DNA of 11,174 nt from contig JANPJS010000072.1 of NCBI GenBank assembly GCA_031425655.1, forward strand, positions 1 to 11,174, read 5' to 3'. Made by a program: the position numbers and the translations under genes. The stretch comes from Abditibacteriaceae bacterium (GTDB lineage: Bacteria > Armatimonadota > Abditibacteriia > Abditibacteriales > Abditibacteriaceae). The notes beneath the pieces are model-generated. The model worked only from the letters and a program-made list of their open reading frames with translations, searched no databases and had not been told where the DNA came from. Below, piece after piece: positions 2,453 to 9,941 of the stretch; the first letter of the stretch is position 1; each line of letters begins with the position of its first letter.

Positions 2453-2836
2453 TCACGGCGCAGCGCGCATTTTCGCCAGCGCAACGACAATCGTATAAAC
2501 GCCCATCACGACAGCGAAGACGCCGAAGCCGAGTTGCAGCGTCGGGCCTTTGAGTTGGTTGGCGTATTTGCCGCCCGCCCAAGCGCCAACGGCCAGTAAC
2601 GCGCCGATAATCAGCGCGGCATTGAAGTCTACGTGGCCCTTTTTGTGATATTCGTAGACCGCGCCCAAGCCGAGCGGCGGCAGCAGAATCGCCAGACTGG
2701 TGCCCGTCGCTTTATGCTGCTCGAAGCCGAGCAAATAAACCAACGCCGGCACGATAATCATGCCGCCACCGATGCCAAAAAAACCGGCGGCGACACCGGC
2801 CAGCACACCAGTTAAGAGTAGTTTGGCGATTTCCAT
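2453..2836 (-). CDS. Half-size sulfite exporter TauE/SafE (TSUP) family membrane protein
   Basis: Family motifs AGFFGIGGGMIIVP and ATGTSL, about 4 hydrophobic segments, 127 aa. Confidence 0.88.
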   Translation of the reverse strand: MEIAKLLLTGVLAGVAAGFFGIGGGMIIVPALVYLLGFEQHKATGTSLAILLPPLGLGAVYEYHKKGHVDFNAALIIGALLAVGAWAGGKYANQLKGPTLQLGFGVFAVVMGVYTIVVALAKMRAAP

Positions 2837-3259
2837 CTACTTCACGATTCCCTTGTAAAACGCGACAACTGCGGGCGAACGCAGCCACCAAAACCAGATC
2901 GCGCCGAAAATAGCGTTCAAAACGGTGAACACTTGTTGCAGTGGTGTGTCCGAGCCAATCGTCGGCAGGCTGAGAACCGAGAGCACGCAGCCTATCATCA
3001 CTGCGATGCGCCCCCAATTGCGGCCATTCCACAACGCCCAGAGAAAGGCCAGCCAGATAGCCGACAGCACCGCATAAGCCGCTAAATCGGCGGCCACGGA
3101 AGTCTCTGTCATCGTGCCGTCGCAATAGACGACTCCAACAACAACGAGAAGGAGTTCAAGGCTGATGAACGTCTTCAGCGCCGGCGGACGAGGGCCAATT
3201 GGAAGCGGAGTGGGCCGAGGTGGTGGCCCCGAAAACGGATCGGGAATAGGTGGATTCAT
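2837..3259 (-). CDS. Hypothetical integral membrane protein (Pro-rich N-terminus, ~4 TM)
   Basis: The ORF fills the gap exactly: 2 nt after the rimM stop and abutting the tauE ATG. It has four hydrophobic stretches and a GRNWGR loop. Confidence 0.7.
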   Translation of the reverse strand: MNPPIPDPFSGPPPRPTPLPIGPRPPALKTFISLELLLVVVGVVYCDGTMTETSVAADLAAYAVLSAIWLAFLWALWNGRNWGRIAVMIGCVLSVLSLPTIGSDTPLQQVFTVLNAIFGAIWFWWLRSPAVVAFYKGIVK

Positions 3260-4487: not shown

Positions 4488-4576
4488 TGGTGCTGGGTTT
4501 TAGGTATTGGGTTCTGGGTGTTAAGCCTTCTCCACGATTAAAATCGCCAGAACCTAACACCCAACACCTAAAACCG
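4488..4576. repeat. Inverted array of degenerate 7-nt tandem repeats
   Basis: TGGTGCT GGGTTTT AGGTATT GGGTTCT GGGTGTT at 4488-4522, then AGAACCT AACACCC AACACCT AAAACCG at 4549-4576. Confidence 0.8.
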
Positions 4577-4581
4577 CACCC

Positions 4582-5928
4582 CTATTTTAACATACCGCGC
4601 GGATTAAAACCGCGCGGCATTTTCATTTTTCCCGATGCCATCGCGTTCATCTGGCGCAGCAGCTTTCTCATGTCGCGGAATTGGCCCAATAAACGGTTGA
4701 CATCCTGCACTTGCGTGCCGCTGCCCGATGCGATGCGCTTTTTGCGGCTGCCGTTAATCGTGTCCGGGTCGCGCCGCTCTTTGAGCGTCATCGAAAGAAT
4801 GATGGCCTCGACGCGCTTCATTTGCTTTTCGTCTACGCCAAGCTCGGCGCCTTTGGGCAATTTGCCCATGCCGGGCAGCATTCCCAGAATGTTTTCCATC
4901 GGCCCCATTTTCCGCATTTCCTTCATTTGCGTCAGAAAATCTTCGAAGTCGAAGTTGCCTTCGCGCATCTTGGCTTCCATCGCCAAAGCCTGCTTTTCGT
5001 CGAACTGCGACTCGGCTTTTTCGATGAGCGTCAGCACATCGCCCATGCCCAAAATGCGCCCGGCCATGCGGTCGGGATGAAACGCTTCCAATGCGTCCAA
5101 TTTTTCGCCCAATCCGACGTATTTGACGGGCACACCCGTCACGGCACGAACCGATAAAATCGCGCCGCCACGCGCATCGCCATCGAGTTTGGTCAGCACA
5201 ATTCCCGTCAGCGGCAGCGTTTCGTGAAACGCTTTGGCGGCGTTGACGGCGTCCTGTCCGGTCATCGCGTCCAGAGTGAGCAGCACTTCGTGCGGCGACA
5301 CGGCATCATGGACGTGGCGCACTTCGGCCATCATCGCTTCGTCAACGTGCAAGCGCCCGGCGGTGTCCACGATCACCACGTCGCAGTTGTGCGCGTCGGC
5401 GTATTTAAGGCCCGCTTTGGCGATTTGCGGCGGCGGATTGGTGCCCATTTCAAAAACCGGCACGCCGACTTGTTCGCCGACGGTTTGCAATTGCAAAATC
5501 GCGCCGGGCCGGTAAATATCGCAAGCCACGAGCAGCGGTTTTTTGCCCTCGCGCTTCAGTTGCGCCGCGAGTTTGGCGCAAGTCGTGGTTTTGCCGGTTC
5601 CCTGCAAGCCGGCCATGAGAATGACCGTCGGAGGCCGCGAAGTGAATTGAATGCGCGCAATACGTCCGCCGAGCAATTCGCTCATCTCGTCGCGCACGAT
5701 GGCGATGACCTGCTGGTCGGCTTGCAGCGATTCCAGCACGCTCTGGCCAATGGCCTTTTCGCGCACGCGCGCCACGAAATCCTTGACGATTTTGAAGTTC
5801 ACGTCAGCTTCAAGCAGCGCCAATCGCACTTCGCGCATCGCGGCGTCAACGTCAGCTTCGGAGATTTTGCCTTTGCCGCGCAATTTGGCAAAGGTATCGG
5901 AAAGTTTTTTAGAAAGATTGGAAAGCAT
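4582..5928 (-). CDS. ffh: Signal recognition particle protein Ffh
   Basis: Motifs ALLEADV, GLQGTGKTT, DTAGR and TKLDGDARGG, and a Met-rich M domain with SRKKRIASGSG. Confidence 0.99.
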   Translation of the reverse strand: MLSNLSKKLSDTFAKLRGKGKISEADVDAAMREVRLALLEADVNFKIVKDFVARVREKAIGQSVLESLQADQQVIAIVRDEMSELLGGRIARIQFTSRPPTVILMAGLQGTGKTTTCAKLAAQLKREGKKPLLVACDIYRPGAILQLQTVGEQVGVPVFEMGTNPPPQIAKAGLKYADAHNCDVVIVDTAGRLHVDEAMMAEVRHVHDAVSPHEVLLTLDAMTGQDAVNAAKAFHETLPLTGIVLTKLDGDARGGAILSVRAVTGVPVKYVGLGEKLDALEAFHPDRMAGRILGMGDVLTLIEKAESQFDEKQALAMEAKMREGNFDFEDFLTQMKEMRKMGPMENILGMLPGMGKLPKGAELGVDEKQMKRVEAIILSMTLKERRDPDTINGSRKKRIASGSGTQVQDVNRLLGQFRDMRKLLRQMNAMASGKMKMPRGFNPRGMLK

Positions 5929-5931
5929 GAT

Positions 5932-6300
5932 TTATGTAAGCGGCTCAATTGTCACGGCGCCGCCGTCGGTGAAAGTAGCGTTGAGTTGATGGTGATGGAA
6001 CAGATGAAGCCCCACCAAAATAAAGCCCTGAGTCGGAACGACGTGAACGACACGATCCTGTCCATCCCAAACGACGGTGACTTTATAACTTTGCATCTCG
6101 ACTTCTGAGCCATCTGCCAGTTGAATAGAGATAGCTGGATCGGGCAATAGGCCCATGTCCCTAATGATGGATGTAGGCAGAACTAAGGCTCCATCGAAAC
6201 CGGTGTCAACCCAGGCCTCAACTTCTCGCGTCACGCCCTTCAAACCGCGTAGGGTTAATCGGATATAAGGACGAAGTTCCGGCGAAACAAATCCAATCAT
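5932..6300 (-). CDS. Clan AA (retropepsin-like) aspartic protease, copy B
   Basis: Catalytic VDTGFDG motif, flap-like QLADGS, ILVG motif, 122-aa single domain. ATGA overlap with the upstream small gene. Confidence 0.85.
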   Translation of the reverse strand: MIGFVSPELRPYIRLTLRGLKGVTREVEAWVDTGFDGALVLPTSIIRDMGLLPDPAISIQLADGSEVEMQSYKVTVVWDGQDRVVHVVPTQGFILVGLHLFHHHQLNATFTDGGAVTIEPLT

Positions 6301-6566
6301 GGAATGTCCGGACGCAAGCCGCCATGAAGCGACCAGGCTGTGCGATAACCGATGCGAATTAAATAGCGATGGCCGTCCGGATGGCGCCCTCGGACGCGGT
6401 CGCTGGCCGCCACTTCATCTGTGTCCACTTCATAATCGCCCGATTCGACATCCACGACGAGGAACTCGCCGCGATGATCGTCAATAACGTGCGGGCGAAT
6501 GTCGCGCAGATAAATTTCCCAGCCGCGTGCGGCTATCTCTTTAAGTGACATCTCGGTTTGCGGCAT
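6297..6566 (-). CDS. Small uncharacterised partner protein (DUF5678-like, assignment uncertain), copy B
   Basis: GAGGTG SD 4 nt before ATG 6566. Paralogous to 6949-7221. Its stop overlaps the protease start. Confidence 0.75.
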   Translation of the reverse strand: MPQTEMSLKEIAARGWEIYLRDIRPHVIDDHRGEFLVVDVESGDYEVDTDEVAASDRVRGRHPDGHRYLIRIGYRTAWSLHGGLRPDIP

Positions 6567-6586
6567 AAAACACCTCACAGTTCATT

Positions 6587-6952
6587 TTACAGCGGCTCAA
6601 TCGTCACGGAGCCGCCGGTTTTGACTTCGATTTTCAATTCGCTGCCTTCGAGCAGGCGCATTCCAAAAACCGGGTCGCCGGTGGTGGCCATGACGGTAAC
6701 TTGCCGAGGCTCATCGTTCCACAAAATCGTGCCTGCAAAAATGAGAACGTGGACACCGCTGCCGTCGGCCAACTGAACCGTTACCTCGTCCAACAATTCA
6801 AAGCCGGCTCGCGCAATAACAGCGGGCGCCAGAGACAGTTCACCGTTGAACCCCGTGTCAACGAAGACTTCGATCTCACTCGCATCATGCTGCGCGTCAA
6901 GCAAGCAAACATGAACAGCCGCTTTGAACTCTATCGTGACGACACCGATCAT
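6587..6952 (-). CDS. Clan AA (retropepsin-like) aspartic protease, copy A
   Basis: VDTGFNG, QLADGS and PVFGMRLL motifs. It aligns without gaps to copy B at about 43/121 identical. Confidence 0.85.
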   Translation of the reverse strand: MIGVVTIEFKAAVHVCLLDAQHDASEIEVFVDTGFNGELSLAPAVIARAGFELLDEVTVQLADGSGVHVLIFAGTILWNDEPRQVTVMATTGDPVFGMRLLEGSELKIEVKTGGSVTIEPL

Positions 6953-7221
6953 AGCGCGTCATCCGGCTTCATCAGGCCGCCAAAAGAGTAGGCTGCTTGA
7001 GAGCCAACGCGAAATCCAAAGCGACGACCTTGCGGACGCCGCGCCATCAAGCGTCGAGCGGCTTCCAGATGCTCGGCGTCCACCTCATAGTCGCCGGATT
7101 CGACATCCAACACCAGAAATTCGCCGCGATGTTCGTCAATCACTTGCGGGCGAATGTCGCGGTAGTAAATCTCTTTGGCCAACGCCGCGAATTCTTCTTT
7201 TGAGAGTTCAATGACGTTCAT
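6949..7221 (-). CDS. Small uncharacterised partner protein (DUF5678-like, assignment uncertain), copy A
   Basis: GAGGTG SD 4 nt before ATG 7221. About 47/89 identical to copy B. ATGA overlap with protease A. Confidence 0.75.
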   Translation of the reverse strand: MNVIELSKEEFAALAKEIYYRDIRPQVIDEHRGEFLVLDVESGDYEVDAEHLEAARRLMARRPQGRRFGFRVGSQAAYSFGGLMKPDDAL

Positions 7222-7225
7222 TTCG

Positions 7226-7247
7226 CACCTCACACTTTATTTTAGCA
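7226..7247 (-). promoter_or_regulatory. Putative extended -10 promoter (TGcTAAAAT) plus SD for cassette A
   Basis: The minus strand reads TGCTAAAATAAAGTGTGAGGTG. A related motif precedes cassette B. No -35 at canonical spacing. Confidence 0.5.
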
Positions 7248-7252
7248 AGGCT

Positions 7253-8122
7253 TCATTCAAACATCGCGCGGGCGAATTCTGCGGGGTCGAAGTCGAGCAA
7301 ATCTTCGATTTTTTCGCCGACGCCGATGAGTTTGACGGGCACTCCGGTTTCCTTCGCCACGCTGAGAATAATGCCGCCTTTGGCCGTGCCGTCCCATTTG
7401 GTGAGAATCAGGCCGCTGAGAGGCGCGCTTTGCGTGAAAGCCTGCGCCTGCGTCAAGCCGTTTTGGCCCGTCGTCGCGTCTAAAACCAGCAGGCTTTCGT
7501 GGGGCGGCGCGCCGGTTTCGCGTTCGATAATGCGCGTAATTTTCGCCAACTCGTTCATCAGATTCGATTTGGTGTGCAAACGCCCGGCGGTGTCAATGAG
7601 AACAGTATCGCAGCCGCGACTTTTGGCGGCGTGCAGGCCATCGAAAACGACCGCCGCCGGGTCAGCGCCGGTTTGCTGCGCGATGACCGGCGCTCCGGCG
7701 CGCTTGCCCCATTCCTGCAATTGCTCGATAGCCGCCGCGCGAAAAGTGTCGGCAGCGATAATCAGTGGTTTGTGGCCTTGTTGCACCAGACGATGCGCCA
7801 ATTTGCCGACCGAAGTCGTTTTACCAACGCCGTTGACGCCGACGAAAAGCCACACCGTCAGGCCATTGGGATTGGTTTGGAGCGGCGTGGTCTCGTCGCC
7901 TAAGACAGCAGCGATTTCGCGCTGTAAAACCGCGATGGCGTCGGCATCTGTCGGCACTTCGCCGTGCCGCGCCGCCTCGCGCAAAGCGCCTATTAAATGC
8001 GAAGCCGTATCGAGCGAAACATCGCTCATGATGAGCTGTTCTTCGAGTTCATCCAATAACTCGGCGTCGAGCTTGCGTCCGGCAATAAGTGAAGTGACTT
8101 TCTTGAAAAAACCTTTGAGCAT
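7253..8122 (-). CDS. ftsY: SRP receptor FtsY (NG domain only, no long acidic A domain)
   Basis: Motifs GVNGVGKTT, AADTFRAAA, DTAGRLH, DATTGQNG, TKWDGTAKGG and GVGEKIEDL. Confidence 0.98.
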   Translation of the reverse strand: MLKGFFKKVTSLIAGRKLDAELLDELEEQLIMSDVSLDTASHLIGALREAARHGEVPTDADAIAVLQREIAAVLGDETTPLQTNPNGLTVWLFVGVNGVGKTTSVGKLAHRLVQQGHKPLIIAADTFRAAAIEQLQEWGKRAGAPVIAQQTGADPAAVVFDGLHAAKSRGCDTVLIDTAGRLHTKSNLMNELAKITRIIERETGAPPHESLLVLDATTGQNGLTQAQAFTQSAPLSGLILTKWDGTAKGGIILSVAKETGVPVKLIGVGEKIEDLLDFDPAEFARAMFE

Positions 8123-8172: not shown

Positions 8173-8282
8173 CCCGCCGCTAAAGCAGCGGGCTGAAACA
8201 CAAAGCCTCTGCGAGGCTGGAGAAATACTTCTCATCAGCCTCGCAGAGGCTTTGTGTTTCAGCCCGGCCATTCATGGCCGGG
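8173..8282. repeat. REPIN-like nested palindromic element
   Basis: Perfect 31-bp inverted repeat at 8189-8219 / 8236-8266, flanked by hairpins CCCGCCGC-TAAA-GCAGCGGG and CCCGGCCA-TTCA-TGGCCGGG. Confidence 0.85.
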
Positions 8283-9168: not shown

Positions 9169-9858
9169 ATGCCACGCCTCCAACGCCCACCTCTGATTTT
9201 GCCGACGCGCCCGACTTTCGAGCATGAAATTGCGTTAATTGCGCGAGGTTTTGCGCGTATTGTCGGTGTGGACGAAGCCGGGCGCGGGCCTTTAGCCGGC
9301 CCGGTTGTCGCGGGCGCCGCTATTGTGCCTTTCGATTTCGCATCGCCCAATTTTGCGCGACTCAACGACTCGAAACAACTCGATGAGGCGACACGCGAAG
9401 TGCTTTTCGCGGAACTGGCAGCTGAAATCGAATTCGGCGTCGGCATCGTGGATGCGCAAAGCATTGACGAAATCAACATTCGTCAAGCGTCGTGGCGCGC
9501 CATGCAACTCGCCGTCGCCGATTTGATGTCGCGCGCGGCGCCAGTGGACTTCGTTTTGATTGACGGCCTGCCTTACGGCCCCGGCCCGTGGCCTTACGAG
9601 GCCTTAGTCAAGGGTGATGCGCGCAGCCTTTCGATTGCCGCCGCTTCAGTCATCGCCAAAGTCACGCGCGACCGTTTAATGATGGAATTCGACGCGCAAT
9701 TTCCGCTTTACGGTTTTGCGCGACACAAAGGCTATCCGTCGCCGCAACACCTCGCCGCACTGCGTGAACACGGCCCGTGCGCGATTCATCGCAAAACTTT
9801 CGGCCCGGTGCGCGAAGTAATTTTAAACACAAAGACACAAAGACACAAAGAAGATTGA
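9169..9858 (+). CDS. rnhB: Ribonuclease HII
   Basis: Motifs GVDEAGRGPLAGPVVA, LNDSKQL, LIDG, VKGD, SIAAASVIAKVTRD, HKGY and IHRKTF. ATG 9169 preferred over GTG 9139. Confidence 0.97.
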   Translation: MPRLQRPPLILPTRPTFEHEIALIARGFARIVGVDEAGRGPLAGPVVAGAAIVPFDFASPNFARLNDSKQLDEATREVLFAELAAEIEFGVGIVDAQSIDEINIRQASWRAMQLAVADLMSRAAPVDFVLIDGLPYGPGPWPYEALVKGDARSLSIAAASVIAKVTRDRLMMEFDAQFPLYGFARHKGYPSPQHLAALREHGPCAIHRKTFGPVREVILNTKTQRHKED

Positions 9859-9941
9859 AGGATGTAGATGCGACGATTACTTTTCCTACTCTTTTCGTGT
9901 TTTCTTTGTGTCTTTGTGTCTTTGTGTCTTTGTGTTTAAAA
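9821..9941. repeat. Inverted array of 8-nt tandem repeats: TTTTAA(ACACAAAG)x3 ... (CTTTGTGT)x4 TTAAAA
   Basis: Perfect units at 9827-9850 and 9904-9935 with matching outer hexamers. It lies between convergent genes, and the left arm is inside the rnhB 3' end. Confidence 0.92.

Follow-up and report, generated by a model that had tools for sequence, protein, structure and literature searches.

The window analysed here is a stretch of 11,174 nucleotides from an Abditibacteriaceae genome (G000). On its minus strand, two consecutive cassettes, each made up of a small partner gene and a gene for a single-domain retropepsin, lie between ftsY (7253..8122), the flank upstream of the slot, and ffh (4582..5928), the flank downstream, both of which were recognised as SRP54 by Pfam. 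The first cassette comprises S1 (6949..7221), an ORF call for a partner protein of 90 aa, and Pr1 (6587..6952), a retropepsin of 121 aa with the motif D32-T-G-F. The second comprises S2 (6297..6566), an ORF call for a partner of 89 aa similar to S1, and Pr2 (5932..6300), a retropepsin of 122 aa that likewise carries D32-T-G-F and whose stop lies 3 nt before the start of ffh. The preliminary description of this DNA had spoken of the genes in each cassette as fused by an ATGA overlap; the overlaps are present (6949-6952 for S1/Pr1 and 6297-6300 for S2/Pr2), but the genes merely overlap and are not fused. Both partner genes have a GAGGTG ribosome-binding site 4 nt upstream of the start (7226..7231 for S1 and 6571..6576 for S2, minus strand), that of S1 being kept in genomes G001 and G003. 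In agreement with the preliminary description, the ORFs, D-T-G motifs and GAGGTG elements of both cassettes are intact, and the divergence that it gave (about 35% identity for the protease and 53% for the partner) is close to the measured values of 36% (43/121) between Pr1 and Pr2 and 54% (47/87) between S1 and S2. These two cassettes were the only such pairs found in G000.

An extended -10-like element, TG-n-TAAAAT (7239..7247, minus strand), lies 7 nt 5' of the ribosome-binding site of S1 and is kept in G001 and G003. A similar hexamer, TAAAAT (6584..6589, minus strand), overlaps the Pr1 stop and lies 7 nt 5' of the ribosome-binding site of S2. Since 35% of 217 partner genes are preceded by a -10-like hexamer, vs. 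14% in shuffles, each cassette may have its own promoter; a two-hexamer promoter scan of the window did not report the element at 7239..7247. No operator-like inverted repeat was found in the leader of either cassette, and an RNA search gave no RNA holder among the matches listed. Elsewhere in the window, long inverted repeats of REP-like appearance stand between genes or at gene ends (55-113, 2382-2446, 4496-4575, 8189-8266 and 9821-9941), reaching 31 nt at 100% complementarity and in some cases built of short tandem units. Two membrane proteins are encoded between rimM and trmD (2453-3259), one of 127 aa, a TauE/SafE protein of half length, and one of 140 aa that has no Pfam match.

The assignment of the larger proteins to the clan AA proteases was confirmed by profile. 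Pr1 scored 59.9 bits against TIGR03698 (clan_AA_DTGF), above the curated cut-off of 57.35, whereas Pr2 stayed below it (46.9 bits, E 2.7e-12) and matched a clade profile at E 7.8e-37; 65/66 paired proteases match TIGR03698 at E ≤ 0.001. The hallmarks of a retropepsin are present (D32-T-G-F, V/L-[FV]-G97, the flap and the fold), and the fold model of Pr1 is that of a retropepsin with a pLDDT of 95.9. Its best structural match is APRc of Rickettsia conorii (5c9b; Z 11.4, rmsd 2.4, 107 aligned), a bacterial protein of like fold at 17% identity, and RloA2 of Pseudomonas (9g59) also resembles the model (Z 6.9, 12% identity). RimB and RloA of Pseudomonas are bacterial retropepsins as well, of which RloA is described as having a signal peptide and cutting polyglutamate (10.1101/2025.03.18.643919). 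In contrast, Pr1 and Pr2 look cytoplasmic, since both sequences open directly at the first strand of the retropepsin fold. As far as the cited passages go, few bacterial clan AA proteases have been characterised (PMC2642776; 10.1101/2025.03.18.643919), and little is known of TIGR03698-type proteins of ~120 residues, whose description in those passages mentions no partner (PMC2642776).

For the partner S1, an alpha-beta-beta-alpha-beta core and a C-terminal tail are predicted. S2, modelled on the basis of the family alignment (pLDDT 82), likewise folds into a small alpha/beta domain followed by a loose tail. No Pfam family, and no recognisable DNA-binding domain, was found above Pfam cut-offs in S1, S2 or 66 relatives. 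When the partner model was compared with known structures, nothing matched clearly (best Z 4.1, rmsd 4.8), Foldseek gave no hit at E ≤ 0.001, the sequence search was equally empty, the ESM Atlas returned unnamed clusters only, and no solved relative of the partner was found; such failed fold searches do not show that the fold is new. The profile check proposed in the preliminary description named the protease (TIGR03698), while for the partner it yielded a remote similarity to DUF5678. In a single pairwise hhalign comparison with a profile of 15 DUF5678 matches, the partner aligned over 61 columns at 85% and E 5.9e-6, and DUF5678 genes themselves stand before retropepsin-like genes. On these two grounds the partner is a distant relative of DUF5678 and not a member. 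Identity with DUF5678 proper was ruled out, as 0/66 partners match PF18929 at E ≤ 0.1 and the window locus has no match. The two kinds of pair have the same gene order, similar size and profile-profile similarity, but the cassette partner is set apart by its longer N-terminal helix and by D-x-x-[ST]-G-x-Y as a conserved motif. G000 itself has a pair of the second type, a true DUF5678 gene followed by a DTGA retropepsin-like gene (L158:1453-1707; G000:C45, near 62580-62696). DUF5678 is fused to the retropepsin-like gene in 4/20 loci (L145, L146, L147 and L152), where it is N-terminal to the retropepsin domain, in tandem at L147, with the look of a prodomain and its enzyme. One fusion of the cassette partner to its protease was found (P0035). 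Proteins with two partner domains in tandem, in one case separated by an antitoxin-like insert, and a fusion of the partner to PF14384 (the DUF4415 family) also occur among P0031-P0033, P0034 and P0036.

The position of the cassettes invites the question of whether they serve the SRP pathway, either as a ylxM-like regulator or as a protease that acts on Ffh, on FtsY or on signal peptides. All five matches in the family, found in four genomes, are between ftsY and ffh, and a metagenome locus (L280) also carries a cassette before ffh. However, 23 of 27 Abditibacteriaceae genomes have no match, the slot in other genomes of the family is empty or occupied by unrelated genes, and elsewhere the pair adjoins many unrelated genes. 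Because ftsY abuts ffh with a gap of only 36-100 nt in G005, G007, G026 and G038, the interval is a variable slot. The preliminary description had likened it to the slot of ylxM; this analogy is not supported, since the ylxM family (UPF0122, PF04297) has 0 matches in G000 (97% complete), although the Bacillus subtilis positive control was matched, and since ftsY adjoins ffh in those four genomes. A role in the SRP pathway is therefore very improbable. The presence of the cassette in only 4/27 genomes of the family also shows that it is not vertically conserved at this locus; in a tree, all five slot cassettes lie to the same side of a branch with weak support (39/94). In a genome of the same genus (G002; loci L002 and L003), ftsY and ffh are unlinked, ffh comes after genes resembling metK and prfB, and the search for a cassette gave none.

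Beyond the family, the same gene order and overlap recur widely, which argues that the cassette is more than a chance arrangement. Among 80 genome loci chosen by a partner match, 73/99 partner matches are followed by a protease match and 77/78 protease matches are preceded by a partner; the offset in the 73 full pairs is -4 in 34 and -8 in 27. Among the phyla represented at these loci are Armatimonadota, Chloroflexota, Planctomycetota, Actinomycetota and Latescibacterota. Of 151 genomes from the window's own phylum, 33 have the partner and 36 match the protease profile, the 33 being a subset of the 36, with a maximum of 23 partner and 20 protease matches in one genome. Among plasmid records, S1 matches 11 and Pr1 matches 9, every one of them cyanobacterial, and one such pair is carried by Nostoc PCC 7120 plasmid alpha (L164:4001-4650; PCC7120DELTA_RS29705 and RS29700). 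The record holds two copies, and this pair lies near a transposase and a nuclease/nuclease-inhibitor gene pair. With the sensitivity of a single pattern or a single protein, viral contigs gave no relative of the partner, and none of 50,697 phage records matched the protease. A second hot slot exists in Dehalococcoidia (L057, L058, L078, L079, L082, L106, L108, L120 and L122), where cassettes, often in arrays of 2-3, stand beside amidase-family genes downstream of a glmU-like gene.

The surroundings of the pair outside the ftsY-ffh slot consist of many, unrelated, mostly housekeeping genes. Toxin-antitoxin, restriction or mobile genes account for 12/69 Pfam-named nearest neighbours vs. 6-7/49 third neighbours (125/140 control genes covered), so that this comparison gives no clear defence-island signal. 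No constant third gene was found by the cassettes in the 150 of 182 candidates examined with crude gene calling. PADLOC 2.0 gave 0 matches for the partners and, for the proteases, matches to generic protease models only, at E of about 0.01.

The pairing is confined to the DTG[FY] clade of TIGR03698, a family of COG5550-type clan AA proteases that also covers solo proteins with DTGA or DSGA. Of 20 TIGR03698 loci that did not adjoin a first-round partner match, 17 were of the DTGA/DSGA kind with the Asp intact and no partner match upstream; the remainder were one DTGF protein with a partner, one edge fragment and one without a row. Since these solo members keep an intact Asp, retropepsins are not harmful as such. 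We found no description of the pair in the literature, supplements aside; the supplements of PMC2701414 may list such gene pairs. Taken as a whole, the cassette is a real, widespread and undescribed two-gene module.

The preliminary description had left the role of the small protein between inhibitor, adaptor and substrate of the protease. When two copies of Pr1 were modelled with one S1, the score was 0.85 in three runs, compared with 0.23 for the best of 3 controls, which is in line with the interaction that it had suggested. This score mark is reached by 116/157 solved complexes and 2/215 mismatched pairs, figures that apply to the present case only approximately. The runs share at least 97% of their contacts, and the pLDDT is 90, a value given for the partner only. 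In the model, residues 66-70 of the partner form a strand beside the outer strand of the protease flap (54-57) and pair with it, tail residues 76-79 pair with the flap (57-60) beside D32 of both subunits, and partner residue 78 would occupy a pocket formed by protease residues 35, 37 and 59. The S1 tail (codons 75-85; 6967..6999, minus strand) is thus predicted, from the model's interface list and from covariation, to contact both catalytic aspartates and the flap, and the model supports binding of the partner at the active site. No confident contact involves the far half of the cleft (8, 30 and 92-95 of the first copy; 36-37 and 57-60 of the second) although partner residues up to 85 are engaged, and we therefore infer, from the contact list rather than from coordinates, that the tail turns at Gly81-Gly82 in an inhibitor-like pose. 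The PDB contains many retropepsins with bound substrate, which may have influenced where the tail is placed. Models may also put any tail whatever into the cleft of a protease.

Covariation was assessed in an alignment of 204 rows, namely 203 distinct pairs and the reference. The top coupling joins partner residue 78 to protease residue 37, a listed contact of the model, and an aromatic residue at partner 78 goes with Gly37 in 109/116 cases. Six of the top 25 couplings join interface residues, vs. 1.9 expected and 0-2 in 12 shuffles, and the top z of one shuffle (8.9) is above that of the real data (7.4). In a charge test of 653 column pairs, 57 of them at the interface, 9 of the 15 strongest opposite-charge pairs were interface pairs. 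Partner 56 and protease 84 carry opposite charges in 59 cases and like charges in 4, both polarities being found; in a tree-aware test of this position pair, 4.8/6 pairs went the same way and none the other way (p 0.06). No tree-aware covariation test reached p 0.05 and 85/93 were without support, the tests being short of power. Covariation points to the same interface as the complex model, with which it overlaps in 66 sequences.

A tail lying at the catalytic dyad could also be cut. The partner might be a dedicated substrate, whose tail is cleaved, perhaps at 79/80, to switch on or off an effector activity of its N-terminal half. Residue 78 sits in its pocket like a P2 residue, which we take it to be by analogy with HIV protease; the N-terminal half of the partner is strongly conserved and mostly outside the predicted interface, so that it may do something else; and partners that occur alone would be harmless pro-forms. 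Nevertheless, the contacts missing from the far half of the cleft, a variable and polar position 79, and the absence of any enzyme-like fold match for the partner speak against such a role, which also leaves unexplained why intact proteases are not found alone. We regard a dedicated substrate as quite unlikely, and the evidence, among the three roles first suggested, favours an inhibitor.

If the partner is an inhibitor, its specificity would reside in the C-terminal half, which holds 21/27 interface residues. S1 and S2 have only 6/27 interface residues in common vs. 41/62 elsewhere, with Arg in S1 and Asp in S2 at position 56, and Pr1 and Pr2 are 35-36% alike both inside the interface and outside. 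The suggestion that the two cassettes have separate specificities fits with this observation, as it is at the predicted interface that the partners have diverged most. Close relatives of S1 share 83-96% identity with it over residues 1-47 but 46-79% beyond. In G001, the N-terminal half of the partner is 89% and the C-terminal half 47% identical to S1, and the protease is 35% identical to Pr1, compared with 90% for Ffh; the share of conserved residues with identical codons is 60% in ffh and declines to 46%, 30% and 29%, albeit with small counts. The halves of P0012 group differently (AU p 9e-7 and 0.01), with groups picked after viewing the alignment. The conserved N-terminal half next to the divergent C-terminal half and protease in G001, together with the different grouping of the halves of P0012, suggests that the C-terminal half of the partner and the protease have been exchanged as one unit.

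The loss of the two genes is lopsided. In a genome-wide sample of the best 150 of 185 partner matches, 106 have a listed protease directly downstream and 44 do not. Among the top 104 protease matches, 91 have a listed partner and 7 more an unlisted one, giving 98 with a partner upstream; the other 6 are 3 solo proteins that lack this Asp of the active site, plus 3 fragments; DTG is retained in one fragment, which begins after a stop. Among these 104, every full-length protease of the clade with an intact DTG had a partner. In a tally of all loci, which were mostly selected by the partner, an intact partner accompanies 191/191 full-length proteases in which D-[TS]-[GA] is intact; 7 proteases with an altered motif also have a partner, and 3 have neither the Asp nor a partner. 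The 271 intact partners stand before a full protease in 196 cases and before a broken one in 25, with none in 42 and at an edge in 8, and many orphan partners are still trailed by a protease remnant. The solo full-length proteases, in which the Asp is replaced by Trp or Ser (L170:1513-1881, L175 and L177:2863-3231), occur in three genomes; being of one family, they may represent one event, and decoys or partner sponges are possible roles for them. Lopsided loss of this kind would be expected if the enzyme were harmful and its partner protective. It could also reflect the partner gene being first and shorter, or assembly errors. In G003, the protease gene is frameshifted, which we treated as an assembly error because ffh is frameshifted as well, and some broken proteases in long-read genomes may likewise be such errors.

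Alternatively, the two proteins may bind as predicted, with the partner acting as an inhibitor, a chaperone or a propeptide in trans of a harmless regulatory protease. The module would then serve stress responses or quality control and involve neither addiction nor killing. The prodomain-like fusions of DUF5678 to retropepsins and that of P0035, the location of cassettes among housekeeping genes, and the existence of solo relatives with an intact active site are in keeping with such a module. However, it does not explain why a genome should carry up to 23 copies with diverged interfaces, nor why partners persist alone and intact proteases do not. We consider a harmless regulatory protease rather unlikely.

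Our preferred, tentative reading, to which we give somewhat less than an even chance, is a putative cognate inhibitor-protease module that works like a type II toxin-antitoxin pair. The partner is predicted to bind the protease dimer and would likely block it, and the protease would be the harmful part. The tail would fill one half of the cleft and turn away at the conserved Gly-Gly, and would for this reason be a poor substrate. Each partner would be specific for its own protease, and the C-terminal half of the partner would be exchanged with the protease as a specificity unit. A freed protease might then cut a host protein, so that the cell is slowed or killed. As in type II systems, the cassette is a small two-gene operon with the partner first and overlapping stop and start codons, and is patchy, multi-copy, frequently reduced to a solo partner and predicted to form a direct complex (likeness drawn from the main text of PMC2701414). 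That main text does not name COG5550 and names a Zn-protease (COG2856) module as the only one of a protease (PMC2701414). The cassette differs from such systems in that it has no recognisable DNA-binding domain or operator and in that its putative toxin is an aspartic protease. A DNA-binding domain and an operator are usual in type II antitoxins but not universal, and the partner might conceivably have a new DNA-binding mode. The toxin-antitoxin-like reading of the preliminary description is thus sustained in respect of co-occurrence (33 of 151 genomes, up to 23 copies), predicted active-site binding and patchiness, and falls in respect of ylxM; of the findings that it had named as contrary to it and that are open to computation, neither rare co-occurrence, nor lack of a predicted interaction, nor vertical conservation was observed.

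Co-encoded cognate inhibitors of proteases are known from staphopain-staphostatin and protealysin-emfourin, where staphostatin binds in a substrate-like manner, and PI-3 of Ascaris extends the flap sheet of pepsin, an aspartic protease. These systems differ from the cassette in protease class or organism, and their enzymes are mostly secreted. No fold match of the partner to staphostatin, emfourin or PI-3 was seen among the matches listed. A small retropepsin in a defence setting is the aspartic protease of type III CRISPR loci in Sulfolobales (PMC3973734); its PADLOC model (PEPT_D) matches at fold level and weakly (E 0.011), and the cassettes have no cas genes.

A bolder joint reading, which we hold to be possible but doubtful, is that the cassettes are a new class of toxin-antitoxin system. 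In it, the toxin would be an HIV-protease-like dimer and the antitoxin, as a natural protein inhibitor, would clamp the flap and plug the catalytic dyad; recombination in the constant N-terminal half of the antitoxin gene would rewire specificity by swapping the binding half together with the protease, and, with DUF5678 included, these pairs would form one large retropepsin-inhibitor superfamily.

The present analysis offers a testable role for two large uncharacterised families, the DTG[FY] clan AA proteases and the unnamed partner family with DUF5678. Since the pair is present on Nostoc PCC 7120 plasmid alpha, a model organism is available for such tests. Should the partner prove inhibitory, retropepsin-type dimers would have a natural protein inhibitor, of which, to our knowledge, none is known for this class. 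If the free protease is toxic, proteolysis would be added to the chemistries of type II toxins. The hundreds of natural pairs with charge-swapped interfaces would, in addition, be a model for the way in which paralogous pairs are insulated from one another.
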